Assembly (NCBI GenBank): GCA_028699255.1
Contig: JAQVUX010000006.1
Location: 89,928-153,927 of the forward strand
From: Candidatus Omnitrophota bacterium
Lineage (GTDB): Bacteria; Omnitrophota; Gorgyraeia; 2-01-FULL-45-10
Reading direction: 5' to 3'
DNA: 64,000 nucleotides
Part shown: piece by piece, positions 33,640 through 61,077 of the stretch
Layout: each line of letters starts with the position of its first letter
How positions within the stretch are numbered: position 1 is the stretch's first letter
Made by a program: the position numbers and the translations under genes
Notes under the pieces: model-generated
Seen by the model: only the letters and a program-made list of their open reading frames with translations
Told to the model about the DNA's origin: nothing
The model's database searches: none

Positions 33640-36600
33640 ATGTTAGCTTGGCAAAGCAAGACATTTATTAAGGGCGGACTCGTCTCTAACGACGTGTCTG
33701 TTCGCGAGGAGCTCGGCAACGCCTCTCTCATCATGGACTGGAGAAGTCCGCACAATAAGTGGTGGATGAGGATAGTTGCCGTAACTCTGACCCTTTGCTT
33801 TATATACCAAGATGTGGTATGGGCGCAGGATGGACAACCCGTATGGTCTAAGCCGGCTAATGAGAAATGGGGACAGTCCCCTTCGGGGACAGTTCCCATT
33901 TCTTTAAATACTAATATAGCAATACCGAAAGACATAGCTACAACCAAAGAAGCATATAATGGTAGTAACAGTTCTTCCCCCAAGACCATCATTCAGATCC
34001 AGGACGCCCACGCATCTTTAGCCGCCCAGGAATCCATATCCTCGATACTCGACTCGTTAGTTACCAACTACGATCTTAAGCTCGTAGCTGTGGAAGGCTC
34101 ATCAGGCTACATCGATACCTCGATCTTAAAGACATTCCCCGACGAAGGAATCCGCAGGAACACCGCAGAATATCTTATGCAGAAAGGTAAGATGTCGGCC
34201 GGAGAGTTCTATTCGGTTACAAGTAACAAGAATATCGCTTTATACGGCATAGAAGACAAAGATTTATACAAAGCTAACGTTGAAGAGTTCAAGAAGATAT
34301 ACGAGGCTAATCAGTCTGTCCGGAAAGACATCACAGGTCTTATAAATACCCTCAAAGCCATAGAAGACAAGGTCTACTCCAAAGAGTTAAAAGCCCTCGA
34401 GGATAACTCCGTATTAAACACCAACGGCAAGGTATCTTTTACAGACAGATGGGCGTATATAAGCGCTCTTGCCTCAAAGGTCGGTATAGATATAAATGGA
34501 AAAATGTCCCAGTCCAAGGGGACAGTCCCCTTCGGGGACAGTCCCCTTTTTCCCAACCTTTCAAAACTCGTCGAATCTATAAAGCTTGAAAAAGAGATCT
34601 CCTTCGATAAGGCCAACAAAGAGCGCGATGCCTTAATCGACGTCTTAAGTAAATCGATAACTAAGACAGAATTGGAGAAGCTCGTATTAAACTCCCTCTC
34701 ATTCAAACAGGGCAAGATAACCCAGGGCGAATACTACGTATTCCTCCAGGGACTGGCCAATGACAACAACGTATCACCCTTAAAGTACAAGAACCTCATA
34801 AACTTCACCGACTACATCACCCTCTATGAGTCGATAGACTTACTCGAGATATTCGAAGAGGCTAAAGTATTGGAAGATGCCATCAAAGACAGGCTCTACA
34901 CTTCCCCCGACCAGAGGAAGTTACACGACCTATTGAAGTGCGCTAACTTTATCAAAGACATCTTCGATCTTAAACTTACCAACTCCGACTTCGAATACTT
35001 GGCCAAGAGCTTAAAGACATGGAATGCGGATACGATTGCCCAATTCATTGAGGAAACAGGTAACCGCGTAGGTTACACCTCCGGTAACCGCGTAGGTAAC
35101 CTACGCGGTTGTACTGGTGACGATGGTTACGACCTCGATAACATCTTCTCGAATCTGCCCATAGCCATACAATTCTACAATACCGCGGAAAGACGTAACA
35201 ACGTCATCCTGAATAACACCATATCCCGTATGAATAAAGAAGGCCAGACAGTAGCGGCCCTTATCACAGGCGGCTACCACACCAAAGGTATATCCGAGCT
35301 ACTAAAGCAGAAAGAGACCTCCTATTTAGTAATATTACCTAAGTTCGACGCCTCAAAGCCTGAAAGGCCCTACGTAGCTATACTGACCAATAAGAAAGAC
35401 AACTATGAAGAGCTATTGGAATCGGGTAAGTACCAGCTATTAACCGATAACTACTTAAAAGACGGCATCCAGGACCCCAAGAAGATAGAAGGCTTTATTA
35501 AAGAGATAGTGGTTGTATCCATAGGCCAGGCGGCCATAGAGCGTAAAGACATCGCCAGTGTCAAGAAGCTGTGGATCGAGAGCTATCGCAGGTCGTACGA
35601 GGCCCTTATGGAGAAGGGGATAGTAAAGAAACCATCTTCCGAACCTGGTGCGGCAGAAGGTTCCAGCGAAAAGTTTTCCAAACCAGGTTTGGGCAAAGGA
35701 AACCGTTTCTACAAACCTGGTTTGGAAAGCCAGGAACAAGGTTATGGCGACCAGCATATAGCGACGACGACGAACTTTAGTCCGGTTGCTCTCGAGAAAT
35801 TTATTCAACTTATAGACGATATAAATGCCATCCGGATTAGCGATGCTGTGGCGGTTGTAGAGCTGGGCGATACGCGCTGGACGATAGCGATATCAAGCGA
35901 TAACACGATAACGCGACGTGAACCAACGCCCGCTGAGCTACGAGGATTTAATTCGCAACTGAGAAAAATCGCGTCGCAACCCGCTTCTACCGAACATGTT
36001 CCATCCGCCGCGCAACGTGTCAAAATCCTTGAGGGCACGACACGGGACTTATTGATCGACGCTATCGTAGAAAGAATGCATGGCGTTTCCACTGAAGAGT
36101 CGTTCGACGACGCTGTCCGCGGGAAAACAGCCTATACGAATTTGACCGTAGACGGCCAAAGAGAGATACGGCAAGCGGTTATGAATAGATTTAAACCTAT
36201 CGAAACCGCCCAAAAAGTTACTGTCGTCTCGCGTATTCCCGAAGCGTTCATAACAAGAAACGCTCAAGCGAAGAAGAATAAAGAAGAGAGAAGAGGCAAG
36301 ATCGAGGTAATAGTAAAAGACGCCGGTCAAGACGGCATTACTATAACAAAAATCCTTTCTCAGCTCACCGCCCAAGGCGTTACCGTAAGCCGTTCTACCG
36401 TATTTAATGACCTGAAAGAATTAGCCGCAAAGAGCGACGCAGTGATCACGATTGAAAAAGCCAGCGGTAAAGCGAATATATACAGGATTAGACCTCAAGC
36501 TACTCCGGTGCCGGAAGCCGCACCTATAGAAACGCCGCAGGCTGTAGCGCCTGTAGCGGAAGTTACTCCTGCGCCTGCAGTCGAAGCCGCACCAGCTCCG

Positions 36601-39600
36601 GAAACTCCAGAGCTGTCCCCGGAAGAAATCAGCCAAGCGGTAGACGAAGGTTTAGCCAGGCTTACAAGGCAAAATGACGGATTTGAACATGCGCTTATAA
36701 GATCCAAATTTACCACAAACGCCGAAAACAAATTACTCGCGACAGTAGAAATTTTAGTGGATAGCCGCGGAGTGCCGCGCTACTTAGCGGATGAGAAAAA
36801 CACGATATCCGATGAAGAGAGAAATACGCTTACCGAGGTTGCCGTAACAGTCGACGATACGGGAAGAATAAATCCAGAGACCATTGAAGTCTCGTCCCCA
36901 GAGAAATCAAAATTATCAGACCAGGCAAAAACAACACTTCAGCAAATAACCGCTAAATATAACAAACAACTGCCGTCTTCATTGCGAATAATCGCAAAAA
37001 GAGCCGTTTCCGCCGTAACCCATTTTATGGAGAATGCGTGGAGCGCGGCGAAGGAACATTTAGAAAGCATCTCCCCTGAACAAAAAAGAGTATATCTTAT
37101 TGTATTTATCATGGGAATTGCGGGGGTAGTTTCGGCGCTTATGTTCACATATTTGGCGTGCATAGGTAATTTAAATATTTCGCCCGTTAGTCTGCGTACC
37201 ACTGAAGGCGGTATCAATCTGATAGCAGCATTAGGGATTTCGGCTATTATAAGGAAATCAGCCGTCTCGCGTATTCCCGAAGCGTTCATAACAAGAAACG
37301 CTCAAGCGAAGAAGAATAAAGAAGAGAGAAGAGGCAAGATCGAGGTAATAGTAAAAGACGCCGGTCAAGACGGCATTACTATAACAAAAATCCTTTCTCA
37401 GCTCACCGCCCAAGGCGTTACCGTAAGCCGTTCTACCGTATTTAATGACCTGAAAGAATTAGCCGCAAAGAGCGACGCAGTGATCACGATTGAAAAAGCC
37501 AGCGGTAAAGCGAATATATACAGGATTAGACCTCAAGCTACTCCGGTGCCGGAAGCCGCACCTATAGAAACGCCGCAGGCTGTAGCGCCTGTAGCGGAAG
37601 TTACTCCTGCGCCTGCAGTCGAAGCCGCACCAGCTCCGGAAACTCCAGAGCTGTCCCCGGAAGAAATCAGCCAAGCGGTAGACGAAGGTTTAGCCAGGCT
37701 TACAAGGCAAAATGACGGATTTGAACATGCGCTTATAAGATCCAAATTTACCACAAACGCCGAAAACAAATTACTCGCGACAGTAGAAATTTTAGTGGAT
37801 AGCCGCGGAGTGCCGCGCTACTTAGCGGATGAGAAAAATACGATATCCGATGAAGAGAGAAATACGCTTACCGAGGTTGCCGTAACAGTCGACGATACGG
37901 GAAGGATAAATCCAGAAAACATCGAAGTATTTCATGGGAAAGAATTATCGGACCAGGCAAAAACAACACTTCAGCAGATAATCGCTAAATATAACAAACA
38001 ACTGCCGTATTCATTGCGAATATTTGCAAAACGTGCGTGGAATGCGGCGAGAGAAAAGCTGGGATCCGTATTAAGCATACAAAAGATCTCCCCGGATTTC
38101 CTTGCCCGCACGATATCTTACACATTAGCTGGGTCTTTAATACTCGCACTTTTTGTATTCTGGCAACCGGCCGCTTTTACAGGATTTGTTCACAATGTTG
38201 AATGGTTCCTCGGAACCGTTGTAAGCAGTACCTCGCTGTCCTATCACGGAGTAAGCCTTTCTGCCGGCAAGATCATGCTGGCATTATCTATGTTCGAGCT
38301 TGTCGCGACTCCTATCACGCTCGGACTTAAAATAATGCTTAAGAGGGCGGGGATGGCTGAAGATGTGCCGGTGGTTGATGCCACTTCCACAGCAGATGAG
38401 ATCAATGCGGCGATGAAGGCGCGTTTTGGCTATACGGTAGATGAGCTTCAGGCGGCCATGGAAGCCCAAGCGCTTAAACGCGCCACCGGTGAGCAGGGGG
38501 AGGTAGCGCTTAAAAAGATACGCGCGCTGTTTGAAGGCTTCGGGCATGATAAGTGGCAGTTGCTCCGAACTTATAAATTACTCGAATCGGGATGGTTCGA
38601 CACGCTGGGTGTTCTCGCGGCGGCAAGCAGGCGCCAGCGTCTCGGCCCGGTACTTAATTTCATCAACAATATGATAAACCCGATCGAGCTTTTAAAGATA
38701 ATATACGGTTTTTATCCGGCATTCTATCTGGAAAAGATAAAGCGATCGTTCCAGTCCGGAGGGGCCGAGCTTTTACAACTTAACGAAAAGCAGGCAGAGC
38801 AGGCTATGCCCATGTTTGGGACCTCTGACACGAGAGAGCTTGTTCTCGATATATTTGCCCGCTCTGTAATGCCGCGTATAGGCAATACCAAGTCCGTTTC
38901 ATCTTATATGTGGACCGGCGGTTTGCAGTATGTTTCAGCCGTGTGGGCCGATTCCATATATATTAAAGGAACATTGCAATTCATAAAAGCGCGGCTTACG
39001 CTCGCGTTCGCAAGCAGAGTAGGCTCGATCCTCATACTTACTCCGCTATCCTGGATGTTCAATCTGAACGGTCAATGGCTCGCCGGCGCCGCTCAGAAAT
39101 TCTTTAGCGGGCAGATGGGCCTGCAGTTGCCGGTGCCAGGCGCTGTGCCGGGCGTAGCCAATCTCGCGTCGAACGAGAATTTCCTATTCGGTTTTATACC
39201 GGGCATAGCGAAAACCATGGCCCCGATAAATTACGCCGGAGTAATGGCGCGCGAATTCATCATTTCCGGCGCGGCAAAACAGCTTACCTTGGCCGCCGTC
39301 GCGGGAGCATTCTCTACTACGTTTGTTCTTCGGATATTTGCCGGCGCTCGAAGGCTGTACAGTGATTATAGACAAACAGGGAAGATAAATATAGCCAAAT
39401 ACATGACAACTGCGGCTATTGTTGCCATGGTTATGAGTATCGGAAAATCTACATGGGGTATGTGGTTGGTCAATGTCGAAATACCGATGGTATTAGGCCA
39501 GGCCGCAGTTGCCGACAGGGTTATGTTTGGGCAGGGCGGCGGCACATATTTACATGATACACTGGCCCTTGTAGAAGGCCATGAAGGCGCCATAGGTGTA

Positions 39601-51600: not shown

Positions 51601-54600
51601 GATACTCTGCGCAGAAGTATTTTTGGTAAAGATTACATAGGCACGCCAAAAGAAGCGGTAATAAGCAAAACCGGTAAGGGTGATGCGGAAAACACCGTTG
51701 TCCAGGTACAGAACACCCGCAATGAATACGGCGAAGCGGTTATTTCCTCGCTCGGCGTCCTTTTCAGAAGTTTTGCGAATAATCGTTCGGCGGTTGGATC
51801 AGCCATATTTACAAGTGATACGGCGCAAGGCCCGCTTAAGACGATGGAGCTTATACTTGCCAGTATGGAGCAGTTACGACATGGCGAAAGTAGCGCTTTT
51901 ATAGCCGGCAGAAACAACCTGCCCGGGGTGACCGGTCCCGCCCATGGCAAAAAATGGGGCGGGTATCAGCAGTTCTTCGTCGCCCTTTATTTCGGTTTTA
52001 TGCATCATATAGCATATACAGGCAGAGAAAATGACCAGAGGGACCAGATATTTGTGTATGAAAAAGGCGGTAAAAAGTTCTTCGGAGAACACCTGAAGAA
52101 TTCCAGAAGGACCTACGGGGATGATAGCGTAAGAGATTCTAACGATAATATAAGGGAAGTGCTTATCGAAGAAGAGGATTGTGATTTCTATATAAAATTA
52201 AAAGAGGGAGATAATAAGTTTGTTTATGAAGAGATAGTCGTCGTGGATAATAATAACCCTTCGCAAAACCTTACCGGCGTAGTATTTGATACGCGACATT
52301 ATCTGATCGATTGCGAAAATAAAGATAAGATATTGCGTGTAGTCGCGGACGGAATATTTGAGTTTAAAAAAGATGTGGAAAACTACAATGGTAAACCCGG
52401 CGCATGGGTGTTGGTAGCGAAAACCGATCAGATAAAATTAACAGAAGATGGTTATCTGATAGATCCGGAAAATGCGGTCAAAGATATAAAAGATTTTTAC
52501 GGGAATATTTTGCCGAAACGAGTAAGACCGGCTATAGTTCAGCAGGTCACAGGTAAAGACATAAATGGCAACAGGCGCGTTCTGCGGCTTGAAAAGACCG
52601 GAGATATTATCGATCCGATAACCGGAAAGAAGGCTGGAACCATATTCGATAAGTCGGCTCAAAAAATGTATTACGGTGTGGACGCAAATTATAATCGCAC
52701 AAATCTGCTCATGACATCAAAGTTATTCAGGAAAGGCGAGTGGGAATACGTTGACGACACAACTAAGGATGCTGTAAGGGATACAACAACAGGCATAATA
52801 TATAAAAAAGGGCCATATACCAATCTTGCTATGGATAAGAACACCGGCGCTATGTTTTTGAAATTTGCAGGCAAGACGCTTGATTTTGGCGACGGCAGGT
52901 TGATACCTCTGGAAAGAGTGAGGGCGTTTAGTCCGGAATCCGTTAATCCGCTTGTCGATAATATTATAAAACGCCGGGGCGAATTCCTGATCCATGGTGA
53001 TAATCTTGTAACCGATAATAACGGGCAACCGGTAAAGGTTAAGGATTTCTGGGGAGAAGATGTGCTGATATCGCTGGATAATGCTTATGTTGACAGTCAT
53101 GGTAATCTTATTCATTCCAATGTAACGGAATTACTCGCGGTAAAAGAAGCGTGGGAGATAGATCCTTATACCGGTGATGCGGTGGTTAAGGGGAGCGGGT
53201 TCAGGGGAGACGGCCATATCCTGGCGGCGAAAAATAAATGGGTTGCGGATAAAGACGGGAAATTATATGCCAGAGGTATTACTCAAAGCGAGGCCGATTA
53301 TGCCGCAAAGACAGGCGTGTATGGACTTTTGGATAAACTTAATCTGGGCCTGACAGGGGTTGAGAATAATTGGTATATAGAGGATCCGGAACATCGCCTG
53401 CCGCTTGCGGGATATCCTGTCCAGAGAGTAAGGAACGGCTGGGTTGTTAACGAGGGCAAAGGATTTTCACTCGACGCATCAGGTAATGTAGTGTACACAC
53501 CAAATTGGCTTAGGGTCGGATGGCTGTCGGACGAGACTTTCGGCGAATTACCCGCCTTAACAATACCTGCAAGTAACGTAAAATCGATATCGAAGGACAT
53601 TACAAAGATAAATTACGCGAAAGACAACCGCCTAGAACATATAGAAATTCTCGCAGATTTTGGCAGTTATTACAAGGATGATAAAGGTAGTTATTATAAA
53701 CGCCGCAAAGTTGGATATTTAGATGAAATAAGCGGTGAGCCGGTATGGTATGGTGAAGCTCCCCCCGGAACGGTTCGTTTAGATTTAAAAGGCGGCTTAT
53801 GGGTGGACACGCCCGATTCATTGGATTTGACCGCATGGGCCGGCCGCGGTTATGAAATAGGTATAGCGCAGAATGGCAACCTGGTGGCTATTAAAGCCCT
53901 CGCCGATAAGGCAGAATACGAGATCGACCGCGTTACGGGCAATGCGCGTATCACCTCCGGCGCGAACAAGGGACAGCAATACAGGGTCGGCACATTCTTA
54001 AGAGTTGGGGAATACGGTTCTTACAGATTTATCCTTTCGCTGGAACCCCGCAAGACACAGCTTCCTTACGATATTTATCCGGACATTCAAGGCATAGGCG
54101 CCGATGGACTTATTTCCTCCGACCATCTTATGGCAAATCCAACGCTTATGGAGTATCTCGTCCAGGCGCCTCAAAGGCCGCGGGCTATAGACCAGACGGA
54201 TAGTGAAAACGAAATAATGGATAATGATACCGCGGAAAAATTGAGTGTAGCGGTCAGAAATCGGGAAGGCTTCGATCCGGATAAACTTTATTACACTATA
54301 TTCGGCATTCTGCAAAGAGAGCTGTACATGACGAATGCCGGTGAGTCGGAATACGCTTATCTGGGCGGCACGGCGCATGATATGCTTAACTATATAGCCG
54401 CGATGAATAAGTGGAGCTTTGAAGAATCCTCCGCATACGGGAAAATGTTCGATGTTCTCGGTATATACGCCCTGAACGTTATATTTACGGAAGCCATACC
54501 GCCGTTCGCGCGCTGTCACGATCACTGGGAGGCGTTGAAGGCATATGCTCTGCTTCTGCCCGGTTTCTGGCGCGATAAAGAGAGGTTTGTCGGAGACGAA

Positions 54601-57600: not shown

Positions 57601-60600
57601 GACAGAAATTTCAGGCAGATACTTGTAAAGGCGCAGGCGGAAGGCCTTAGCACCCGGATAAAAACCGACATCGAAAGATATGTCGGAACTTTAGGTAGCG
57701 TCGAATACGCGTTGCCGCCGCAAGCTACATGGTCGCTCGAGAAGAATGCGCCGGAATTGGTCGGCAAAACGATAGTTACGCTTTCGATGGAAGGCAATAT
57801 CCCGGAATTTGAAGGATACGCCGCGCAGAATGCCAATACAAAAGGCGGTCTTGGCGCGTACTTTGGCGATAAGTTAGAAGGATTGTCGAAAGTAGGAGCC
57901 ACGGCTTACGGGATAACGCCCAGATATGCTATGGCCGGTGATCAGAATGTTGAGGCGGATTATCGGGAACTTGTTCGTAAAGGTATTTTAAAAAGAGTAC
58001 AGGGCCGCGACGGTAAGCCGTTAACATTGCGCGTTTCGGCGTGGGATGAATGGGATAAGGATAATGCCGATAACAATCCTGTTTATGATGTAGAGGTTTA
58101 TGTCGTAAATCGCGGCGGAACTCCTTTGTATGTACTCTCAATGCCAATGGTCTTTGACAGTTTATATACAGATAATCGCCTGCACCGCTATACGCAAGAG
58201 ATCGTTTTCGGGAAAGCGGCCTTCCAGTTAATGGAAAAACTCGGGCTACCTCCGGATATTTTACATTTGAACGAAGCGCATACCGTAGTAGCCGCGGCTC
58301 TTATTAAGGCGGATATAGCGAAAGCCAAATGGGCGCGGGAAAACCTTGGCTCAAGCCGCAAATCTGTTTTTGAAAACAAAAATATGAAAGTTGTGCTGAC
58401 GAACCATACGCTTGTTTCCGCCGGTATGGAGATGCATCAGCCGGAGCACATGTACAATGCGAATATAGACCGCATGCGGGCCATTCTCGAAATACCCGCA
58501 GAAGTCGCGGGCCAATATGGCAGTATGTTCCTCAAGAGGCATATACTCGATAGCGAAGATCACCCTATCAGCCCAGCATCGCTTAGCGCGATAGGCGTGC
58601 GATTGAATGAAAAGGGTGAACCTGCCGACGCGGATAGCTGGAAGCGTTTTAATGCGGCAGGCTGTAAGTACAGGATGATAGTCGATTTCTGCTACGCGGC
58701 TTTTAAACTGGCAGATGAGATGAACGCTGTAAGCGAAGAGCATGCTTTAGCGACCACAAACTTATTCAAAGCCCTTTACGGGAATGAGTTTAATAAAAAA
58801 GTTACAGGGATATTAAATGGTTCCGGTAATACATGGAAAAACCGGGAGCTTTTAAATGCTGAAACCGGTAATAATGTTCCGGACTCCAACGCGTTATATG
58901 ATATTCACGAGAAGGGCAAAAAAGAGGCTTACGCAGAAATAGAAGCGCGAACCGGAGTGAAGCTTAATCCGGATAAGCCGACGGTATGGCTCGTAAGACG
59001 GCTTGTGGAATATAAGAGCCAGTATCCGATACTCAGGTTTATAGTTCCTATAATCTGTTCCGGCAGGGGCGAGGTCTTTACCAGGGAAAAATTAATGAGG
59101 ATATGGATGGAAGATATCCCGGCTATGAGCGGCGCGGATGCCAATAGGCGCTATAACCGGGATATGCACGCTAAAGCTAACCGAATACTCGATATGCTAT
59201 TCGCCGGCAAGACCGAAATACGCGGATTGGATATGCAGATGGTGATTGCCGGCCCGGAGTATGAACATGGTTGGGTCAAGCGCTTCAAGTCATGGCATGC
59301 GAAATATGACGGCAACTTTGTTTACGTCCCGAATTCCGACGCAAAATTACTAAAGATGCAGGCGATAGGCTCTGATGTATGTCTTACTATACCGCGTCCG
59401 TTGGAAGAAGCGTGCGGTACGTCCGACCAAAGATCGGGTATGAACGGAGGCGTTACAGTTTCGATTAACGGCGCCGGCCCTGCCGAATGGGTTACGGAAT
59501 TTAATGAAGCTACTCTTGAGGGCAACGGATTCCTGATAGGTTCATATACAAAGATGACGCCGCAAGGCCTCGAGGCCGATATTGATGGATTCTACGCAGA
59601 TGCCCCGGCCGATGTATTTAATAAGCTCACAATTTGTTCGCGGCTATTTTACGAAAGAGGCACAAATCCCGCGTGGAAGCAATTGATGCATAATTCGTAC
59701 ACGGCCGCGAATTACGGCGCTCTGAGTAAGAAGGCGGTTACGGCCAAGGCGATGGAGGAAAGATACGCGGTGCGCGTATATGCGCCCGCGCTTAAAGCCG
59801 CCGCGGAAGTTTCGCAACAGCAGGTTGTTGCGGCATCCGCTATAAGCATACTTGCCGTAGCGGCCTCTACACCGCTTGGGTCATTTGTGAATCAGGTAAT
59901 AAATAATTCGTTGGATGCCATCGGAATGCCACACTGGCTGGCGGGTGTTATTATTATAGCGGCATTAGGTATAGCCGCGGTGATAAAAATAAAGAAGGCG
60001 GTTATCTCTTCGAAAATCACCGTCGGAATACCGCCCTCGGCAATCACTACACGCAAGGCGGCTATCGAAACTATCCTCAGCTCGGCAGGCGGTAAATACG
60101 AAGTGGTAACCGTCGATAATATCGCCTCATTCGCCGATGAGTCCGCCGGTAGAGGCACAGCGAGGATATTCATAGATAATGATATCTCCGAGGAAGCCAT
60201 AAAAGAGCACATCCTATTAGCGAAGCTCGCCACAAACTATTCCGGCGTATTGGCTACAGCCAATATAGACAGGGCATTGGTAAAAGAGATAACTGACCTC
60301 ATTAAAGATATCCTCGGCGATGATGCCATGAGCTTAAACGCCGCGGAAATATTCTCAAGGGTAAGCGAAGCCGTCAAAGATTCGGTTAAAAAAGAGAAGA
60401 TAGCCCGGTTAGCGGGGCTCGTAGTAACCCAGAGCCAGAATCTTACGTCATTCGCGAATAATCATTCCCCGAGATTCAATCCATCCGCGAGAAAAGAAGA
60501 CTCGGCCATCGCCACAGCCGCGACAGACACAATAGCCGCCAAGTCGCTTGAATTCGCCGATGATGTACGTCGTAACGCCGCGGAAGGCCGCAAAACATCG

Positions 60601-61077
60601 CTCATATACGGCGAAGTTTACAAAACGCCTCAGCAAGCCGAAGCTTTCATAAGAGCGCTCGGCCTGAACATGGCAAACATAGAGCTCATTGACGGTAATG
60701 CCCTGGGCTATGACAACGATACGATAGTCGCGCAGATAGCGAAGTCTACGCCCGGATTAAATGAAGCAAAGATAGGCATAAGAGCGGCTGTAGGCCAGAT
60801 TAAGGGTAGGCCTACTAAAGGCAAGCTATTGGAAGTGCCGTCAGTCACCATAGGCGGCAAGAATGTCCTTGTCACGATGAATACGGAAAAGGTATTAGTC
60901 AGGATGCTGCAACTACCGCCTGATAGTGTCGCGGTGGAAGAGCTCGGTATCCAGGGTCTTGCCTATGATCAGGAGACCAACCGGTATGTGTATCTACAAC
61001 CGATCGTGCCGATCAACTACGCCGAGGAGATAGAGACGTATCGCGCGGCGATATTGGTACTGGCCGCCGCGGCGTAA
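33640..61077 (+). CDS. Giant gene: 27,438-nt uninterrupted ORF encoding a 9,145-aa multi-pass membrane mosaic protein (glycosidase-like + GT35 phosphorylase-like domains, internal repeats)
   Basis: Single open frame in ORF track with no in-frame stop for 27.4 kb; own promoter and RBS; terminator-like hairpin downstream. Confidence 0.85.
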   Translation: MLAWQSKTFIKGGLVSNDVSVREELGNASLIMDWRSPHNKWWMRIVAVTLTLCFIYQDVVWAQDGQPVWSKPANEKWGQSPSGTVPISLNTNIAIPKDIATTKEAYNGSNSSSPKTIIQIQDAHASLAAQESISSILDSLVTNYDLKLVAVEGSSGYIDTSILKTFPDEGIRRNTAEYLMQKGKMSAGEFYSVTSNKNIALYGIEDKDLYKANVEEFKKIYEANQSVRKDITGLINTLKAIEDKVYSKELKALEDNSVLNTNGKVSFTDRWAYISALASKVGIDINGKMSQSKGTVPFGDSPLFPNLSKLVESIKLEKEISFDKANKERDALIDVLSKSITKTELEKLVLNSLSFKQGKITQGEYYVFLQGLANDNNVSPLKYKNLINFTDYITLYESIDLLEIFEEAKVLEDAIKDRLYTSPDQRKLHDLLKCANFIKDIFDLKLTNSDFEYLAKSLKTWNADTIAQFIEETGNRVGYTSGNRVGNLRGCTGDDGYDLDNIFSNLPIAIQFYNTAERRNNVILNNTISRMNKEGQTVAALITGGYHTKGISELLKQKETSYLVILPKFDASKPERPYVAILTNKKDNYEELLESGKYQLLTDNYLKDGIQDPKKIEGFIKEIVVVSIGQAAIERKDIASVKKLWIESYRRSYEALMEKGIVKKPSSEPGAAEGSSEKFSKPGLGKGNRFYKPGLESQEQGYGDQHIATTTNFSPVALEKFIQLIDDINAIRISDAVAVVELGDTRWTIAISSDNTITRREPTPAELRGFNSQLRKIASQPASTEHVPSAAQRVKILEGTTRDLLIDAIVERMHGVSTEESFDDAVRGKTAYTNLTVDGQREIRQAVMNRFKPIETAQKVTVVSRIPEAFITRNAQAKKNKEERRGKIEVIVKDAGQDGITITKILSQLTAQGVTVSRSTVFNDLKELAAKSDAVITIEKASGKANIYRIRPQATPVPEAAPIETPQAVAPVAEVTPAPAVEAAPAPETPELSPEEISQAVDEGLARLTRQNDGFEHALIRSKFTTNAENKLLATVEILVDSRGVPRYLADEKNTISDEERNTLTEVAVTVDDTGRINPETIEVSSPEKSKLSDQAKTTLQQITAKYNKQLPSSLRIIAKRAVSAVTHFMENAWSAAKEHLESISPEQKRVYLIVFIMGIAGVVSALMFTYLACIGNLNISPVSLRTTEGGINLIAALGISAIIRKSAVSRIPEAFITRNAQAKKNKEERRGKIEVIVKDAGQDGITITKILSQLTAQGVTVSRSTVFNDLKELAAKSDAVITIEKASGKANIYRIRPQATPVPEAAPIETPQAVAPVAEVTPAPAVEAAPAPETPELSPEEISQAVDEGLARLTRQNDGFEHALIRSKFTTNAENKLLATVEILVDSRGVPRYLADEKNTISDEERNTLTEVAVTVDDTGRINPENIEVFHGKELSDQAKTTLQQIIAKYNKQLPYSLRIFAKRAWNAAREKLGSVLSIQKISPDFLARTISYTLAGSLILALFVFWQPAAFTGFVHNVEWFLGTVVSSTSLSYHGVSLSAGKIMLALSMFELVATPITLGLKIMLKRAGMAEDVPVVDATSTADEINAAMKARFGYTVDELQAAMEAQALKRATGEQGEVALKKIRALFEGFGHDKWQLLRTYKLLESGWFDTLGVLAAASRRQRLGPVLNFINNMINPIELLKIIYGFYPAFYLEKIKRSFQSGGAELLQLNEKQAEQAMPMFGTSDTRELVLDIFARSVMPRIGNTKSVSSYMWTGGLQYVSAVWADSIYIKGTLQFIKARLTLAFASRVGSILILTPLSWMFNLNGQWLAGAAQKFFSGQMGLQLPVPGAVPGVANLASNENFLFGFIPGIAKTMAPINYAGVMAREFIISGAAKQLTLAAVAGAFSTTFVLRIFAGARRLYSDYRQTGKINIAKYMTTAAIVAMVMSIGKSTWGMWLVNVEIPMVLGQAAVADRVMFGQGGGTYLHDTLALVEGHEGAIGVGNTIFDRTLSMLGIGAPVAEQAPAPATIPSVPQAEKAEAAKVIAPTVEKPLEIAKPVVVPEKAAVKSTVAQAPAPLREKELAQTPSAPITEKAKRVTVFKPVAVTKPVEALPPRVESSEAKTREAALSDNRSRGALAYKTEMAAYDAANNNKDYSGAFAHLDKSINIIEALIKNGNSDLPGMLAQLKATRQDLLQRYAFGDPDGYKNTIAAYIEINARYDSDLKKYNAAAKAGNAKDALKYATLCASEIREMLAAGAAKLYPQLERASKKWSDIENYQRTKSASPVVKSQETAKVTTKDELAENAIQYWAESQILRGRYLEAIQKTANLKAEYDNYINKSIKLRGISPVIDARLKTLAGEIAASQRAEKNALKAMSALKDAAEKKEADIKSFRYKNLLKAYSIANDHYAKAAGDRELALEYLEEMIIIAGKMAQLYDKNADVKELLKQLQARVPVRYPILANSYLNVIRQLTFANKNGKIDSLTLQKASFKLNKEILKELQAIKTTPRFVRTREERLYDGRALGNEKSEWPRREIKDINEEIKIIEQFVADNEAKLRAKDLQYKFLRGEKSFSDYKKEAAAIFSKFGFKISIPAREADARSAIIEDAIVTEQIAASSVRSQLQEISEELGRRTLTPQNKGYVRRDSLRQAIQSRLDEVNGRIKSLQVAEKAVKEGKPLPKGLDLPVIELEEPKADMAKLRPLLVEPTVEMLGIPHAPAELKPFVADIIKQGLGIDNPSDKSIDILAHLFSRYFETHYFVHADERAQYFKLMTAILRELKAQGFFESQEVLLPGEEMSSMWSANLSGPVSNSEVQLLTKTFPEKRSELSVINRLGFASSMACHIMRVRYIDNSAPDNLLSDLQAVPEGQMDNYVKLLVSNILKLKPRMESAIGMSVSISSLGRTGWGCVMSAAVYLSAARSVNLSPVINSGKDRFDVRGLVFPSFGIDADSVPSSWLKKAVGPGGSIRENAEFYGPDNDKERILIGPTFDNADLNMIPVSIILGKRAEQGAIETLTNLWNFKGIYRVDDNVSEAIRIREILSVYLEYMGEPSDAEIAASPELRNEFAEWDRIIAQSNDPYVRQKEMSAKDEARQEMRDSILLGNAMYWWERARKERHDFSVAEFRELMKQVKADSVDAIQILKLIHGKDYQPDFHRAADMGWLISYSLPRLLESKESADKTVPAQGPVSPRGMSRIEAFNLLLDADKDGNLRDLTEKYLAKTGSLVNYGKLTPTALLDPQVWGKIQFLASNYLEGKEAPSAVKNFAGMVKARIRMIDAAERLGQTKDKVISVYEGTREEALKAYINSQESAHRRVMGARPVSDAMRRAWEKRFASQWDLYHTMKKAYIETKASEYKKDAGVSDVPKELFSIWGSEFPGMYWEGNLSSEAENFEKKATEKQVEKEIIVRPPTEEIKSIKTPVAKPAAQPASEKGAQTIPAIPSFARMLFNALIGQHPANIDSLAPKDYPVWGISTADNPENPEQYEELGAPIGSKDRANKGYPDKQIITPYAAVLALDCAPKEAVRNITQILNRYPQAIGKYGPYDSIDLKSGAVSNTYVADNKGMEFITIANYFSGGAVQKYFSGSSIVKQALPLLNENFSRMKMPDGLSLEKNISKEEKETLLKLEKAAWDYFADNSNASTNWLPPNRINSGESKSYTSITNIGLYLAGIVAAEKRGYITSDEAKDRLSKALDAISKLDTWNGLFRNYYDLGTLKSSTKSDRLISPVDNGWLAAGLIVAGEAHPELKDKAHGVVTGMQFGHLYDKNAGNLVNNYDENSGPASSHYGLIYTEIRPTLIIAIGLGKLNKDPSVPIVPETAWHSTARTLPADWDWQAQRPDDSYYSYKVNVNGKEETVCFVPSWGGSMFEGLMPNLFIDNKIYSPKGYAIQDAVYVFLHKYFATGASAQKVETPVTQPVKVAPAEKPAVAVPSPEAKILPIVTREQAVSQESLVSGVPQTPESPLVIPGYISDAIAGAKPGNTADEGVEAVLKLRELLSILADEKVFSIADEGGAFDNALISYEKKRSAELNKLFKGNDKLAKSVLREELKNFAVQYRGGVINSTANTFFFDLGISDPGVVEKIIRADKYIDMVGKSNKHPLSAPEVGNWRKEFLERVYLTEAERKLNEDPKRELLIKRMGERKDLDDWRGSKLSGKAGEAYRYISDLFRLIAYLETAAIDVSEDIKKEEKVQEGRPVDDYAALNTLLEAYRATGKAIPAIEVLAAKTQSADFAFWRSARDHIEELEQLKNTLLTEQDFAKRPDEITRILEKAKDLRSYAKKDPVRGLLIQQFVDLADPENPAKAITADDKKTYVNESPSNMAFAKVNALLLGMDQVIKMMKKNRAEELKTMKEFSDTMFEERIRIAEELRAHELKASEFNEDWQKNKTGWAGRVWSRMFGSSAESRAIEAERKRSDDFRTALYDYSVLYNCYLSRQKTPFETAIAEAQFLYEKLTKERTRENIADLEWYEAARAAKKELFYKTYLQMVSKSVGRELKGGDLSFMFKEITLDPYMRRQKDNYKQKLGNDYPENVKEQMGERFVSDKIAEYVKLEALVMELEANLRKNQEIPEYAPQFSRGITTATYMEYDEKNMSYDEKARNIREWFKDASLCQRFAKKYLGYYFGYYTLQHVVRTMREDDRATPVLFEKPDRAEANFKSKYSTDLAYKNYGPRLNNMHDTGYALRVTFDAVDDNRYDLLLKELDRINGGKASGEIRMVRDEAVERLGSFHNELAKLLLRFYNSKPRESVERDVTELEKEALAGIIENLTINLETRNKEYADANKKIWENAAERQELIKEVRRNRKRGYDSLERFDRTNTVGRLSIEMNDALKVANRVMPPDAKISINQERIDYFVTQCMESGMTPMEQVDIAFIKPQALRKIYVEIFGKEPTPHQWEDIRFYVESKMDLDGWTEDNVRVCIVYGEYIREIYKTLPGARQPNDGETKMLVEHMLKNGILPINTNVREMNIEPNRITVKALIEKRLAPERVIKLTADILTTLERKEYGKLSGEEEFINQVFYLMGYVLDTNIVEKPEDAKPSYNKEALVKNIGDRLKGLNIEGSGYTTQELAGKIVDNIINRGLQADNFPALVDRLLQMKTRINKVDDIIRDKKTKAKSEGREFEFNEEQRADIVPISENDLNILAVLDDSRQNRSDGIGIAEIAGFKRDSSAWKRLKEDVKKPIDALWGGLLNSEAESRYNAIRGKIIDAAFARYKGKYTKEYLGSMVDRLIRAGLYTPEGELTEVAKIAGLQKAVLSMRGVEPSSDTEELKRQLDRIRDNAPEDILEKAELAAWQKTAQLFGVSDIAATKVGIKEQLAARLLTLEKNIKEAAELAGLRALATEEFGINNPGRNIIEATDQIQRSARENKVPFVNESEYLVDLRAKAGALGVTTRAGASNEKELLNKAIAEAEEKLPRTLKYYADNAFLRYFAAEIGVSAKSGDETSVRKEAADEARAKAEVMLNEAKLEGLKTEARLLGITSADSDAEGLQAQIDAEARSIKTKESEVLDKVKTGLSVDSTAMFKSMAKIGIISSVVTLSLSLLGYVIRNLRKWLNLLRAKPQAAEQPQEAARAAVPAPQAVPVSPGAPIEPQIAPTAPVPATIVDNTKNTERKFWSKGLWDMSFMMMKLSVQISVAYSLLFKGPVSPFAGWAFNFGALGTFLKSVWAYFFTSGIIDFDSFGVFLQSASHDLQALAPFAAVGLAIGVVTLIMNQVVKYGRQSVGIRILKEKPGFAGTLHLIAKSAFLAPVLAFASYFFISKGNLIATSGAGNAIWLFSSPVIVLGAIFAIIYVSNKLLIKAFPRSSTLRSISVLGITVAGIATIAMFLPGGLFSNFANVFTFGVYAYIIGKFSFRTFEFISSALQIPARFVWDREGEKAWSKEALWDGWKHFKGSLNNFVFEGVLFSTTMVYVFVTQNMFTSVGWLVALGAALYYYSNNSAASLTAGQVFYIGKNFVKTTSFALSIYFFAQIGIALSGGAAVASISQNLGYIVLITVINIFVDTLRRSIFGKDYIGTPKEAVISKTGKGDAENTVVQVQNTRNEYGEAVISSLGVLFRSFANNRSAVGSAIFTSDTAQGPLKTMELILASMEQLRHGESSAFIAGRNNLPGVTGPAHGKKWGGYQQFFVALYFGFMHHIAYTGRENDQRDQIFVYEKGGKKFFGEHLKNSRRTYGDDSVRDSNDNIREVLIEEEDCDFYIKLKEGDNKFVYEEIVVVDNNNPSQNLTGVVFDTRHYLIDCENKDKILRVVADGIFEFKKDVENYNGKPGAWVLVAKTDQIKLTEDGYLIDPENAVKDIKDFYGNILPKRVRPAIVQQVTGKDINGNRRVLRLEKTGDIIDPITGKKAGTIFDKSAQKMYYGVDANYNRTNLLMTSKLFRKGEWEYVDDTTKDAVRDTTTGIIYKKGPYTNLAMDKNTGAMFLKFAGKTLDFGDGRLIPLERVRAFSPESVNPLVDNIIKRRGEFLIHGDNLVTDNNGQPVKVKDFWGEDVLISLDNAYVDSHGNLIHSNVTELLAVKEAWEIDPYTGDAVVKGSGFRGDGHILAAKNKWVADKDGKLYARGITQSEADYAAKTGVYGLLDKLNLGLTGVENNWYIEDPEHRLPLAGYPVQRVRNGWVVNEGKGFSLDASGNVVYTPNWLRVGWLSDETFGELPALTIPASNVKSISKDITKINYAKDNRLEHIEILADFGSYYKDDKGSYYKRRKVGYLDEISGEPVWYGEAPPGTVRLDLKGGLWVDTPDSLDLTAWAGRGYEIGIAQNGNLVAIKALADKAEYEIDRVTGNARITSGANKGQQYRVGTFLRVGEYGSYRFILSLEPRKTQLPYDIYPDIQGIGADGLISSDHLMANPTLMEYLVQAPQRPRAIDQTDSENEIMDNDTAEKLSVAVRNREGFDPDKLYYTIFGILQRELYMTNAGESEYAYLGGTAHDMLNYIAAMNKWSFEESSAYGKMFDVLGIYALNVIFTEAIPPFARCHDHWEALKAYALLLPGFWRDKERFVGDEYLSPNIVKMAQVQGWMPGDITLFYYEISALKVILDALSGLWPKASRSIDDLHEKHPFSAGSGKAMSIILYGAFGTLAFAVWLMALGVVSVLVPGLREAQDAWRSNLLFGIVMLVMIEISKAVISGIKRLFEQERNDYIVRLFGKDIVISKALVNLIFTAFFVALTIDVGYLGLSPLISKTIAPNIASGKSVVGDAAAYFAIAFGITNALIYFWSMSVTALKNNKAIRRAPILYQPGKDKAYSWAKSVTRYLIIPAILASAMFAIGHFFPDHSPLALIRDQFVHLKYVPSARFVPALVNMIFYNIVPYILPFYLIMGNLSSIAARYLEKKFGWQLLYVNTDIYDVSYKAQWETLNSTNLLMVWLFYQPMAFFKSLFVVGVKRLEPAWVTAAKLALEYSGGYKLWESWTGKDFKVNKQMLFAVIPAVIFACFTWKTDSWFGYTMYGIWLAYIIWISGTQKTPTALILPVVFSLTLLLATAVMGLDSSIVLMGFPIYIWSFLFAPYKNWTTGMFGGSPHYSTNSMVEATRQIRVWEQRYLLGMGKPVEDSEAVKKIIGLDKFFRDGKNEPTMLNQRDKLRLLLFHLTNINLNINPIFEQYIDKALEARRPEEEARLRTKGFIVESRRWPRFQEFDKSRERAFAILDELRGNAALRTQYGNEKLEQLINEEKNRWILRDAVNKAIIRRAHELAGIKRLREKDWDTLSVLTRLEILLELLKSKDIDVRSAADNALTTLGAADNRNVAETTALMNALAAIINRMGPRAYNITDWEKLRRSEQSGFINSVLKYFSITGARAKYIRTLSKPFRKSTAPATSPVVMKGGVEGGRYEIVTADIIDGAIQNYNGVGYEDTDTKLRQDLNNAIKRIFTLDGFSEEAKTKIAAKIMSLLGDQASINALLQNKKLRVVEGNDRLMHFTESADTITLDIDALLHNNDLLFMELVHELLHAKLAATQTRAGPAADLATRIQEEIEVTTQEVELFLAFPKDAQDRILAALAADNDLDDRNFRQILVKAQAEGLSTRIKTDIERYVGTLGSVEYALPPQATWSLEKNAPELVGKTIVTLSMEGNIPEFEGYAAQNANTKGGLGAYFGDKLEGLSKVGATAYGITPRYAMAGDQNVEADYRELVRKGILKRVQGRDGKPLTLRVSAWDEWDKDNADNNPVYDVEVYVVNRGGTPLYVLSMPMVFDSLYTDNRLHRYTQEIVFGKAAFQLMEKLGLPPDILHLNEAHTVVAAALIKADIAKAKWARENLGSSRKSVFENKNMKVVLTNHTLVSAGMEMHQPEHMYNANIDRMRAILEIPAEVAGQYGSMFLKRHILDSEDHPISPASLSAIGVRLNEKGEPADADSWKRFNAAGCKYRMIVDFCYAAFKLADEMNAVSEEHALATTNLFKALYGNEFNKKVTGILNGSGNTWKNRELLNAETGNNVPDSNALYDIHEKGKKEAYAEIEARTGVKLNPDKPTVWLVRRLVEYKSQYPILRFIVPIICSGRGEVFTREKLMRIWMEDIPAMSGADANRRYNRDMHAKANRILDMLFAGKTEIRGLDMQMVIAGPEYEHGWVKRFKSWHAKYDGNFVYVPNSDAKLLKMQAIGSDVCLTIPRPLEEACGTSDQRSGMNGGVTVSINGAGPAEWVTEFNEATLEGNGFLIGSYTKMTPQGLEADIDGFYADAPADVFNKLTICSRLFYERGTNPAWKQLMHNSYTAANYGALSKKAVTAKAMEERYAVRVYAPALKAAAEVSQQQVVAASAISILAVAASTPLGSFVNQVINNSLDAIGMPHWLAGVIIIAALGIAAVIKIKKAVISSKITVGIPPSAITTRKAAIETILSSAGGKYEVVTVDNIASFADESAGRGTARIFIDNDISEEAIKEHILLAKLATNYSGVLATANIDRALVKEITDLIKDILGDDAMSLNAAEIFSRVSEAVKDSVKKEKIARLAGLVVTQSQNLTSFANNHSPRFNPSARKEDSAIATAATDTIAAKSLEFADDVRRNAAEGRKTSLIYGEVYKTPQQAEAFIRALGLNMANIELIDGNALGYDNDTIVAQIAKSTPGLNEAKIGIRAAVGQIKGRPTKGKLLEVPSVTIGGKNVLVTMNTEKVLVRMLQLPPDSVAVEELGIQGLAYDQETNRYVYLQPIVPINYAEEIETYRAAILVLAAAA
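33991..36267. repeat. 2.28-kb long direct repeat, copy 1 (5' region of giant gene 1)
   Basis: Near-identical to 61724..64000 (offset 27,733 bp); spot-checked lines identical. Confidence 0.9.
36225..37262. repeat. Intragenic tandem repeat unit 1 (1,038 bp = 346 aa) within giant gene
   Basis: First ~690 bp near-identical to 37263..37928; identical antisense ORFs at +1038 offset in track. Confidence 0.9.
37263..38040. repeat. Intragenic tandem repeat unit 2 (partial, diverging after ~690 bp)
   Basis: See unit 1. Confidence 0.85.

Follow-up and report, generated by a model that had tools for sequence, protein, structure and literature searches.

A 27-kb gene resembling the known giant-protein genes of the Omnitrophota, with a TIKI-like head module and an upstream RND efflux operon

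Giant proteins that are rich in transmembrane (TM) helices and carry GT5-type glycosyltransferase as well as glycoside hydrolase (GH) domains are a hallmark of the Omnitrophota (West-Roberts et al. 2023, bioRxiv 10.1101/2023.11.21.568195; Nielsen & Lui 2026, bioRxiv 10.64898/2026.06.07.730766). According to these two studies, GT5 is the most prevalent glycosyltransferase family among them, 153 of the 916 long proteins carry PF08323, 94% possess a signal peptide or TM helices, and the N-terminal regions are generally devoid of identifiable domains or uncharacterised. The catalogue of Nielsen & Lui 2026 comprises 916 proteins of at least 10,000 aa, and catalogued Omnitrophota proteins reach 147,155 aa. 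A giant ORF was defined as one of at least 7,000 aa by Seymour 2023, as cited in West-Roberts et al. 2023, whose own focus is on proteins of more than 30,000 aa. The closest described groups are the Archaeovorins, with the 39,678-aa Velamenicoccus archaeovorus protein as their type, and the 'multi-enzyme metabolic cluster' SP+TM class of Nielsen & Lui 2026.

The window analysed here, a 64,000-nt stretch of an Omnitrophota contig (GenBank JAQVUX010000006.1), contains a real 27-kb giant gene, which is the first of a tandem array and lies behind an RND efflux operon:

24013..33341, + strand: RND tripartite efflux operon (OEP, MFP and two AcrB-type pumps; Pfam), upstream of the giant gene
33538..33565, + strand: sigma-70-type promoter of the giant gene, TTGACA-16-(TG)TATAAT (12/12 matches, TG extension)
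33640..61077, + strand: giant ORF of 9,145 aa with ATG start (frame listing, translation, codon usage)
61119..61171, + strand: long stem-loop 3' of the stop codon, a putative terminator (MFE of the region -49.5 kcal/mol, z = -6.1)

The original prediction had described a single 27.4-kb ORF that lacks internal stops, is essentially impossible by chance and has its own consensus promoter, ribosome-binding site and downstream hairpin, and all of this was borne out. The translation has one stop codon, at the frame end, the base composition puts the probability of 9,145 codons without a stop at about 1e-233, and the other two forward frames contain 69-72 stops per 1,000 codons. In addition, codon usage, scored as a log-likelihood with 14 neighbouring genes as the training set, favours the frame of the giant ORF in all 59 windows of 300 codons. 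A Shine-Dalgarno-like AAGGGG precedes the ATG by about 10 nt. The stem-loop was missed by a simple terminator scan because it has no clean T-run; GGGGACAGTCCCC elements, in turn, were rejected as terminators, since all of them are located inside the coding frame.

With respect to its affiliation, the 67 named homologues of the N-terminal head module described below are nearly all Omnitrophica or Omnitrophota MAG proteins, and the best 80 head-bearing genome loci come from Omnitrophota-type MAGs. The suggestion that the gene belongs to an undescribed system could thus not be upheld, as its close relatives are all Omnitrophota and TM-rich GT5/GH giants have already been described there. Giant genes of such type being known as typical of this phylum, the gene therefore adds a new case to them rather than representing a novel kind of system, and it resembles a further instance of the known Omnitrophota giant-protein type, Archaeovorin-like or SP+TM multi-enzyme. 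With 9,145 aa its product is longer than the 7,000-aa definition demands but falls below the 10,000-aa cut-off of the catalogue and below 30,000 aa; it is one more, fairly small example beside the catalogued proteins of 10,000 to 147,000 aa.

With the Archaeovorins it has in common the phylum, a single very long ORF with its own promoter, many TM helices, GT5-like glycogen-synthase-type and glycoside-hydrolase-like domains, weak HEAT-like stretches, mostly unannotatable sequence and an N-terminal region without recognisable Pfam domain. However, it is four to nine times shorter, and neither tiling of the protein contained, at E <= 0.1, SecA_DEAD (PF07517), which is present in most Archaeovorins, nor were methyltransferase, NUDIX or peptidase C39/S8 domains detected by Pfam and NCBIfam. 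Instead of T2SS or type IV pilus genes, of which there are none in the 33 kb upstream, the RND efflux operon precedes it: the nine genes directly upstream comprise, by Pfam, ParA-like, TPR, ROK, OEP, MFP and two AcrB genes as well as two without match, with resistance and transport genes farther upstream. Of 80 related loci, 11 have the same four RND genes immediately in front of the head ORF. The SP+TM class shares with it a signal peptide, many TM helices, a PF08323-centred sugar module, a sequence-unique body with recurring modules and internal repeats, whereas the largest proteins of that class, from which it also differs by its length below the 10,000-aa cut-off, have 21-50 Pfam families in contrast to the two counted here by way of comparison; about 85% of the giant protein is without Pfam match.

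What is new are details, namely the TIKI-type head, a conserved tail with terminal Ala-Ala, an HExxH module, the RND synteny and a permuted GH domain without the GH189 nucleophile; the head, the tail and the HExxH module do not appear in the Archaeovorin paper (West-Roberts et al. 2023). Their value lies in the handles they offer on the insertion, processing and use of giant proteins: long ORFs beginning with the TIKI/TraB/Ere-type head number in the hundreds across the Omnitrophota, and tail, HExxH module and RND-operon synteny are equally concrete and testable. Moreover, a protein of 9 kaa is small enough for expression module by module, with the permuted beta-1,2-glucanase-like domain and a GT-B module with a Lys-to-Arg exchange as defined targets for enzymology. 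The modules are as follows:

33769..33825, + strand: hydrophobic segment near the N-terminus (aa 44-62), a signal peptide of Sec type or an anchor, then VWA|QD (sequence; homologues have classical signal peptides ending in (W/F)AQ)
33922..35619, + strand: head domain core, aa 95-660, TIKI/TraB/ChaN/erythromycin-esterase-like alpha/beta fold (confident structure model)
36226..36999, + strand: internal repeat copy A1, aa ~863-1120, with weak winged-helix-like matches, a Pro/Ala-rich linker and an alpha/beta part (96.9% DNA identity to A2)
37264..38031, + strand: internal repeat copy A2, aa ~1209-1464 (DNA identity to A1)
38101..39474, + strand: first TM-rich region, aa ~1488-1945 (hydropathy; a homologue directly follows the head in related locus L004)
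44005..45309, + strand: (alpha/alpha)6 beta-1,2-glucan-enzyme-like domain of GH144/GH162/GH189 type, circularly permuted (PF10091 3e-18, PF11329 6e-9)
50173..51594, + strand: TM block 1, aa ~5512-5985 (hydropathy peaks)
52027..54189, + strand: strand/turn-enriched region, aa ~6130-6850, with repeated D..G..-hydrophobic motifs, possibly YD/RHS-like (composition, motif count)
54802..56049, + strand: TM block 2, aa ~7055-7470 (hydropathy)
57016..57684, + strand: conserved HExxH zincin-like module, aa ~7793-8015, HELLH at 7927 (homologues in 7 other proteins, 45-64% identity)
57697..59799, + strand: GT-B glycosyltransferase module, aa ~8020-8720, related to GT5 glycogen synthase and GT35 alpha-glucan phosphorylase (PF08323 2e-9; TIGR02094 1.6e-16; glgA models; alignment with PDB 9l6i)
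59824..59991, + strand: TM hairpin, aa ~8729-8784 (hydropathy)
60007..61074, + strand: C-terminal tail module, aa ~8790-9145, ending ...PINYAEEIETYRAAILVLAAAA (…AA), conserved among relatives

Hydropathy, Pfam and structure matches thus largely confirm a mosaic of signal sequence, internal repeat, helical stretches, multi-TM blocks and two carbohydrate-enzyme-like domains. It is also, as had been stated, unlike RTX/Ig adhesins or NRPS/PKS, as RTX, Ig and cadherin repeats and condensation, adenylation and KS domains were found neither in two offset Pfam tilings (E <= 0.1) nor by NCBIfam, which yielded nothing beyond the GT-B assignment. In a hydropathy scan, 24 peaks of at least 1.6 resolve into about 20 distinct TM segments in four blocks. 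All TM blocks, the beta-rich region, the HExxH module and the tail are without Pfam match even at E <= 10, and relatives of TM block 1 were absent from a metagenome scan. Head, HExxH, GT-B and tail modules recur in other large proteins in varying order. The structure model of the tail is of moderate confidence; HAD phosphatase activity was dismissed, since the fold is HAD-like but the DxD motif is not conserved, and a tail profile retrieved only noise from the PDB sequences, that is, EF-hand-like matches with E > 0.001. Likewise, the winged-helix matches of the A1/A2 repeat (FUR, HTH_11, Arg repressor) are weak and were not used for functional assignment.

At the N-terminus, for which a signal-anchor had originally been proposed, the hydrophobic stretch comprises only ~13-14 residues, stays below the TM threshold and is followed by VWA|QD, and it therefore looks more like a cleavable signal peptide than like a signal anchor. 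The head behind it is confidently modelled as a predicted hydrolase of the TIKI/TraB/erythromycin-esterase type with an intact D-x-H…E…H set. Its model has the parallel beta-sheet core fold common to the TIKI/TraB-PrgY-GumN/ChaN/erythromycin-esterase superfamily, to which RRSP of MARTX toxins, EreC and Bcr135/136 belong, and D122-x-H124, E152 and H547, conserved in 37 head sequences, parallel the 2His/2Glu catalytic motif (E-x-H, E, H) of this superfamily (PMC6254334), E152 following the head His by 28 residues as E3930 follows H3902 in RRSP. It differs, however, in that the first acid is Asp and not Glu, that a helical insert of ~330 aa splits the core fold, that it invariably forms the beginning of a very long ORF, and that no sequence match to any superfamily model exists: Pfam and NCBIfam gave no match for aa 1-915, including PF01963, PF05139 and PF04187, and a profile of the 37 head sequences found no superfamily member among the PDB sequences but only noise of the same EF-hand kind. 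A search for the same N-terminus on giant ORFs elsewhere, which the original prediction had proposed, revealed that the head opens at least 581 ORFs in Omnitrophota genomes, always at the N-terminus, and in closer relatives the whole conserved module spans aa 1-~880 (33640-36279). Among the best 80 loci, the head-bearing ORF extends beyond the fetched locus in 63, and in about 19 a further ORF, of more than 2,000-3,000 aa, lies next to it on the upstream side.

In the (alpha/alpha)6 module, PF10091 scores above its cut-off, DUF3131 is matched as well, and further matches include the GH144 structures 4gl3, 4qt9, 3eu8 and 5gzh. The catalytic positions in this group of enzymes are an acid or acid/base Glu (TiCGS E1356, TfSGL E262, CpSGL E211) and the nucleophile E1442 of TiCGS (PMC10834661). 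According to pairwise HMM alignments across a circular permutation, the acid/base Glu is kept as E3778 (YDLLASEAR aligned to HYGLIYTEIR), as is E3853, while the GH189 nucleophile Glu of TiCGS (WGISE) is replaced by Thr in WGIST3460 and the His-His pair H1536/H1537 of TiCGS by Asp/Asn (AHHQGM aligned to ADNKGM; D3547, N3548), D3547 occupying the position of the GH162 general base. Given this GH162-like Glu/Asp pair, the predicted activity of the module is that of an inverting beta-1,2-glucanase rather than a cyclase.

The GT-B module, for which 484 relatives were found, 83 of them at E<=1e-30, shares with GT35 (TIGR02094; 9l6i) and GT5 (GlgA) the GT-B fold, the N-terminal GGLG (KGGLG at 8068, in KGGLGAYFGD) and the C-terminal E-A-x-G-T-S (here EEACGTS at 8589). 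PF08323 is above its cut-off, but TIGR02094 (60 vs 191.7 bits) and the glgA models are below theirs, so that the module scores far under the cut-offs of the GT35 and GT5 families, from whose members it also differs by its location inside a giant membrane protein. In GT35 enzymes, the Lys of EASGTS-x-x-K binds PLP. Here, EACGTSDQR aligns with EASGTSGEK of the phosphorylase 9l6i, placing Arg at the PLP lysine position, and the same Arg is found in four homologues (P0068, P0070, P0071, P0107). Since KxGGL and E-x-C-G-T-S are retained but Arg stands in for the PLP lysine, the module probably works as a sugar-transferring synthase rather than a phosphorylase, according to this prediction. In the neighbouring HExxH module, GxDRLMxF, HExxH, RAGP and EE are invariant.

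The best explanation overall, to which we give somewhat better than even chances, is that the giant protein acts as a membrane-threaded, envelope-anchored enzyme scaffold, a function inferred from folds and motifs. The Sec-type signal would export the N-terminal part of ~1,100 aa, so that the TIKI/TraB/Ere-like hydrolase may come to lie on the outer face of the inner membrane, and the TM helices of the four blocks would thread the chain through the membrane. Since the chain would be stitched through the membrane in this way, the successive soluble modules would each be attached to the envelope at one or the other face of the membrane, although the hydropathy scan does not fix the parity of the TM segments and thus the side of each module. 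These would include the putative inverting beta-1,2-glucanase, the zincin-like module and, as the last catalytic module, the putative synthase, and the scaffold could co-localise glycan-making, glycan-cutting and peptide- or ester-cutting activities. Judging from these predicted activities, its likely role is to build or remodel the cell's own surface glycans or to attack those of a host or prey cell. Against this proposal it counts that nucleotide-sugar glycosyltransferases and winged-helix-like modules are normally cytoplasmic. Also on that side, the data contain no link to predation, and SecA_DEAD, methyltransferase, NUDIX and T2SS/type IV pilus components, common in Archaeovorins, were not found.

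Alternatively, the product might be a polyprotein precursor that is cut by the HExxH module and/or the TIKI-like head, or by a separate protease, at Pro/Ala-rich linkers or conserved sites, its pieces then working independently as separate membrane and soluble proteins. We regard this as possible but unlikely. There are two predicted hydrolase/peptidase-like modules with intact motifs, Pro/Ala-rich linkers separate the modules, which also occur as shorter stand-alone proteins, e.g., head-only ORFs of 598-967 aa among the homologues, and West-Roberts et al. 2023 (bioRxiv 10.1101/2023.11.21.568195) voice the same idea with regard to C39 and S8 domains. However, no cleavage sites are known, and the exported head need not share its side of the membrane with most of the candidate sites. 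As reported in West-Roberts et al. 2023, the 39,678-aa V. archaeovorus protein has been detected by proteomics (Kizina et al. 2022); it is thus made, which does not bear on its intactness.

The giant gene is followed in the array by a second one:

61208..64000, + strand: second array gene, starting with TTG at 61310 and still open where the window ends, with its own promoter and ribosome-binding site

Its promoter (TTGACA-16-TATAAT at 61208-61235) is accompanied by the ribosome-binding site AAGGAGG, its head is a near-identical copy of that of the first gene, and it corresponds to the public partial protein P0001 ('Candidatus Omnitrophica bacterium PHS46_06265'). Quite speculatively, the exported TIKI-like head, the conserved tail with its amphipathic …A/AA-COOH end and the recurrent RND/TolC-type operon might together form a cassette-like, phylum-wide and previously unrecognised system for the handling or export of giant envelope proteins, an idea that we consider doubtful. 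If it were true, members of the array would share "start" and "stop" modules read by a dedicated machinery for insertion, processing or quality control, the bodies between these modules would be shuffled by recombination, and the 100% identical 2.3-kb heads would reflect a fresh conversion event.

It appears improbable that the protein is a surface adhesin or toxin-delivery device which attaches to, or injects into, a host or prey cell via RHS/YD-like beta structure, the enzymes being accessory cargo. While 13 of 20 D..G..-hydrophobic motifs fall within aa 6130-6850 (1.6 expected), RHS-like antiparallel beta-helix tubes have been predicted in Archaeovorins (West-Roberts et al. 2023) and the toxin effectors RRSP and HopBA1 use the TIKI fold, the putative beta structure of this region is deduced from composition and motifs, RHS, Ig, cadherin, dockerin and lectin domains were not found by Pfam even at E <= 10, and the region is situated between two multi-TM blocks and not at an exposed end.

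Even less probable is a Cgs/NdvB-like glucan synthase, in which the GT module would polymerise glucose, the (alpha/alpha)6 module trim or cyclise the product and the TM blocks export periplasmic glucans. It is true that, among solved structures, the (alpha/alpha)6 module is best matched by the cyclisation domain of Cgs (8wy1, 3.3e-33) and by full-length Cgs (8rf9/8rf0, 2.5e-20), with the segment order swapped, and that Cgs, too, is a very large polytopic membrane protein joining glycosyl-transfer with phosphorylase-like and glucan-processing modules. The matches, however, span only Cgs residues ~976-1525, the order of domains is permuted, Thr and Asp/Asn replace the nucleophile and the His-His pair, the glycosyltransferase is of the alpha-glucan-type GT-B fold, and neither a GT84 (GT-A) synthase nor a GH94 phosphorylase domain was detected by Pfam or NCBIfam; true Cgs identity was therefore dropped, its defining domains and nucleophile being missing.

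As to the assembly, positions 33991-36267 are 100% identical to 61724-64000 at the start of the next gene (2,277 nt), in contrast to 42-59% identity for tandem paralogue heads elsewhere, and 36225-36999 repeats at 37263-38031 with 96.9% identity (775 nt). The length of P0001 implies that the source contig ends ~84 nt beyond the window, inside the repeat, and continuity of the first 2.3 kb hence rests on repeat resolution. A Logan contig of SRR22315503, an independent short-read data set, breaks 93 nt into the giant ORF; a metagenome scan with the head revealed no same-species contig and thus gave no independent confirmation of continuity, no contig is recorded as encoding P0001, and the exact giant protein is absent from a collection of 15 billion proteins. 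That the frame of 9,145 aa, or the ~900-1,500 aa at its N-terminus, should nevertheless be a short-read chimera created through collapsed near-identical repeats, the true gene or genes being shorter or joined otherwise, is the least probable of the alternatives, given that two genuine copies are evident from their differing 5' ends (94.9% identity and an indel of 87 nt) and their unlike upstream sequences, that joining the body to the second head would yield a cycle and the given order would thus be the sole linear solution, that the 8,270 aa 3' of the repeat are unique, stop-free and uniform in codon usage, and that dozens of independent assemblies have the same head in front of ORFs measuring 3,000 to more than 4,000 aa.

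The giant gene occupies 33640..61077 on the forward strand as one reading frame of 9,145 codons that opens with ATG and has its lone stop at the end (ORF listing, translation), just as the original prediction had it. From the base composition, a stop-free run of this length would arise by chance with a probability of about 1e-233, and the other two forward frames contain 69-72 stops per 1,000 codons. Codon-usage log-likelihoods trained on 14 neighbouring genes preferred this frame in 59 of 59 windows of 300 codons, so that over its full length it has the look of a coding sequence native to the host genome. The predicted expression signals were likewise recovered, namely a perfect promoter of its own (TTGACA-16-TATAAT with a TG extension, 33538-33565), an AAGGGG stretch ahead of the ATG as RBS, and past the stop a long stem-loop at about 61119-61171 (z = -6.1 vs shuffles). 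The close relatives of the product all come from Omnitrophota MAGs.

However, the proposal that the gene represents an undescribed system did not hold, as its architecture is that of the Archaeovorins (West-Roberts et al. 2023, bioRxiv 10.1101/2023.11.21.568195) and of the multi-enzyme SP+TM long proteins (Nielsen & Lui 2026, bioRxiv 10.64898/2026.06.07.730766). It thus belongs to an already known kind, and we regard the identity of the gene with high confidence. Several Archaeovorin features (SecA_DEAD, methyltransferase, NUDIX and T2SS/T4P neighbours) are absent from protein and locus. It brings some new annotations, open to testing, that bear on the giant-protein class more widely. Pfam thresholds were passed by PF10091, PF11329 and PF08323 only, an NCBIfam scan gave sub-threshold alpha-glucan phosphorylase and GlgA matches, and the remainder of the protein is Pfam-dark even at E <= 10.

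Module map of the giant protein (33640..61077, forward strand; amino acid positions)
1-64: predicted Sec-type signal sequence (basic n-region, hydrophobic stretch of 13-14 residues, VWA-QD junction; below the TM threshold used)
65 to ~880: conserved head
863-1120 and 1209-1464: repeat units A1 and A2, each with weak winged-helix-like matches and a Pro/Ala-rich linker, and a TM hairpin in between
1488-1945: TM-rich region
2100-3400 and 3960-5500: long stretches rich in helix-forming residues
3456-3890 (nucleotides 44005-45309): (alpha/alpha)6 glycoside-hydrolase-like domain
5512-5985: TM block 1
6130-6850: strand/turn-enriched region (13 of all 20 D..G..-hydrophobic motifs in the protein vs 1.6 expected)
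7055-7470: TM block 2
7793-8015: HExxH module
8020-8720: GT-B module
8729-8784: TM hairpin
8790-9145: conserved C-terminal tail

The N-terminal regions of Omnitrophota giants generally lack identifiable domains (West-Roberts et al., bioRxiv 10.1101/2023.11.21.568195), and the head matched no sequence model of its superfamily in Pfam, NCBIfam or a profile search against PDB sequences. An AlphaFold model from an alignment of 37 homologues (pLDDT 84.3, pTM 0.78) shows an alpha/beta core interrupted by a helical insertion of ~330 residues. The (nearly) invariant residues of that alignment, D122-x-H124, E152, R519 and G544-G545-x-H547, reproduce the 2His/2Glu motif of the TIKI/TraB/Ere superfamily with the 28-residue His-to-Glu spacing of RRSP (PMC6254334), from which we infer an active, periplasm-exposed peptidase or esterase. 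Word searches did not find 'erythromycin esterase' in West-Roberts et al., or TraB and Tiki in Nielsen & Lui.

A search for the same N-terminus on giant ORFs elsewhere, as had been proposed, bore out its recurrence: matches to the head alignment number at least 581 across species-representative genomes. Where upstream sequence exists among the best 80 of these loci, the head is offset from the opening of the frame about as in the giant ORF. In 63 of the 80 the ORF extends past the fetched locus (at least 3,900 aa wherever the locus has its complete 10 kb), and the closed ones measure 598-3,589 aa. Conservation is confined to aa 1 to ~650-880, while the bodies differ.

At the other end of the protein, the HExxH module is shared with seven other large proteins at 45-64% identity, with GxDRLMxF, HExxH, RAGP and EE as invariants. 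It is predicted to be zincin-like and matches no Pfam family. The tail stands at the exact C-terminus of six retrieved homologues (P0121, P0123, P0130, P0131, P0149, P0218) and of ORFs in the related loci L007 and L011, all of which end in …LP.T.PI(D/N)Y..EIE.YR.A.L.(I/L)S.AA. An AA C-terminus occurs in 27 of 217 retrieved proteins and, within the related loci, in 6 of 40 stop-terminated frames of at least 1,500 aa vs 3 of 294 frames of 250-1,499 aa. The last residue is Ala in 22 of these 40 large frames (counted from the C-termini listed), usually with an amphipathic E(I/V)..Y… helix ahead of it. Giant ORFs of this group carry an amphipathic end peptide, …PI(D/N)Y..E(I/V)..Y…, with a final Ala as the rule and Ala-Ala often (60997-61074 in the window; large ORFs of L007, L011, L020-L029, L037, L039, L072, L079, L081). 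This C-terminus may be a recognition signal.

The GT-B module carries the motifs KGGLGAYFGD and EEACGTS. The lysine of EASGTSGEK in the phosphorylase 9l6i, which we take to be the PLP lysine, is replaced by Arg (EACGTSDQR) both here and in the aligned close homologues, which argues for a predicted synthase-type transferase. When 1.84 billion representatives were searched exhaustively with HMMER, only 484 relatives emerged, 83 of them at E <= 1e-30, and those listed at the top are 469-7,695 aa long. Head, GT-B and tail occur together in other long proteins in varying order (e.g., P0122, P0188), and six related long proteins (P0068, P0071, P0075, P0083, P0121, P0130) present one small module set (GT-B, HExxH, winged-helix-like units, alpha-amylase-like and PEP-utilising-like regions, tail) in differing orders, which suggests module shuffling within the family.

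The best-supported reading, which we put forward tentatively, is that the protein would form an envelope-anchored scaffold combining an exported head hydrolase with a membrane-stitched body. Head, glycan-acting and zincin-like modules would then act on surface or periplasmic polymers, be they the cell's own or those of host or prey; both the activities read from the folds and the membrane side of each module are presumptive. That the product is instead processed as a polyprotein seems rather unlikely, and an adhesin or toxin-delivery device, for which there are no supporting domains, is improbable. A Cgs-like glucan synthase, whose defining features fail, is very improbable.

The (alpha/alpha)6 domain is of GH144/GH162/GH189 type. 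Compared with every solved relative it is circularly permuted, in that the part matching their C-terminal ~140 residues stands before the part matching their N-terminus. Judged against the TiCGS mutational study (PMC10834661), the acid/base Glu (E3778) and E1400 (E3853) are kept, whereas Thr stands in place of the GH189 nucleophile Glu ('WGIST' for 'WGISE') and Asp-Asn replaces the His-His pair, so that an Asp occupies the general-base position of GH162. These residues make a predicted inverting beta-1,2-glucanase more likely than a transglycosylase.

Also very improbable is a chimera of the assembly, a question raised by the repeats around the head. Directly past the hairpin lies a second perfect promoter (61208-61235), followed by the RBS AAGGAGG and, at 61310, a TTG start codon, so that a second giant-type gene opens 233 nt after the first, its ORF leaving the window end (61208-64000). 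Its product equals P0001, a partial protein on public record ('Candidatus Omnitrophica bacterium, PHS46_06265, partial', 925 aa; 154,011-nt contig), implying that the source contig ends ~84 nt past the window. The 5' ends of the two genes have diverged (94.9% identity over 257 nt, the second with an 87-nt insertion), but their heads are 100% identical over 2,277 nt (33991-36267 vs 61724-64000). Within the giant ORF, 36225-36999 and 37263-38031 share 96.9% identity. Since tandem-paralogue heads in other genomes share only 42-59% identity, perfect identity points either to a duplication or gene conversion that took place very recently, or to a repeat resolved by the assembler. A short-read contig from Logan that shares the genes upstream breaks off 93 nt inside the giant ORF, and two metagenome scans found no same-species contig for checking continuity. 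The 8,270 aa downstream of the repeat are unique, and were this body attached to the second head, a cycle would result, which makes the given order presumably the sole linear solution. The giant ORF is thus very probably real, with a caveat on its first ~1,500 aa.

Paired 13-mers, GGGGACAGTCCCC-TTC-GGGGACAGT(C/T)CCC (8 occurrences vs 0.02 expected; 33869-33897, 34518-34546, 61515-61543, 62251-62279), all lie in frame within head coding regions ('GTVP…GDSP'), one pair in a low-confidence loop of the head model. None turned up in the remaining fetched loci (L001-L081), and the pairs resemble REP/MITE-like insertions that loops tolerate. At 1431-2105 the window also carries a REP-associated tyrosine transposase-like gene. 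Another recent repeat on the contig is a 473-nt internal duplication (20984-21456, 21866-22338; 98% identity) in a 913-aa TPR protein (TPR_12/TPR_10 repeats, 19711-22452).

The ORF next upstream also exceeds 2,000-3,000 aa in ~19 of the best 80 loci, indicating tandem arrays, and one contig has three heads ~30 kb apart. Directly upstream of the giant ORF stands an OEP-MFP-AcrB-AcrB (RND tripartite efflux) operon (24013-33341), which directly precedes the head ORF in 11 of the 80 loci (L008, L010, L015, L017, L018, L022, L044, L048, L057, L061, L080; AcrB identity 49-79%), while other array-first loci have unrelated upstream neighbours. This synteny is unmentioned in the two giant-gene preprints, where word searches for RND, efflux, AcrB and TolC found nothing. 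Further upstream, tRNA-Arg(ACG) (14837-14913) and, after it, two 54-nt direct repeats of 96% identity (14965-15018, 15116-15169) could be an integration-site remnant. A resistance/transport cluster (2625-13928) encodes a Cu/Zn-efflux-like permease, an arsenite methyltransferase, an ArsG-like permease, ACR3, an ArsB/MamN-like transporter, a class A beta-lactamase-like protein and a Ca/P-type ATPase.
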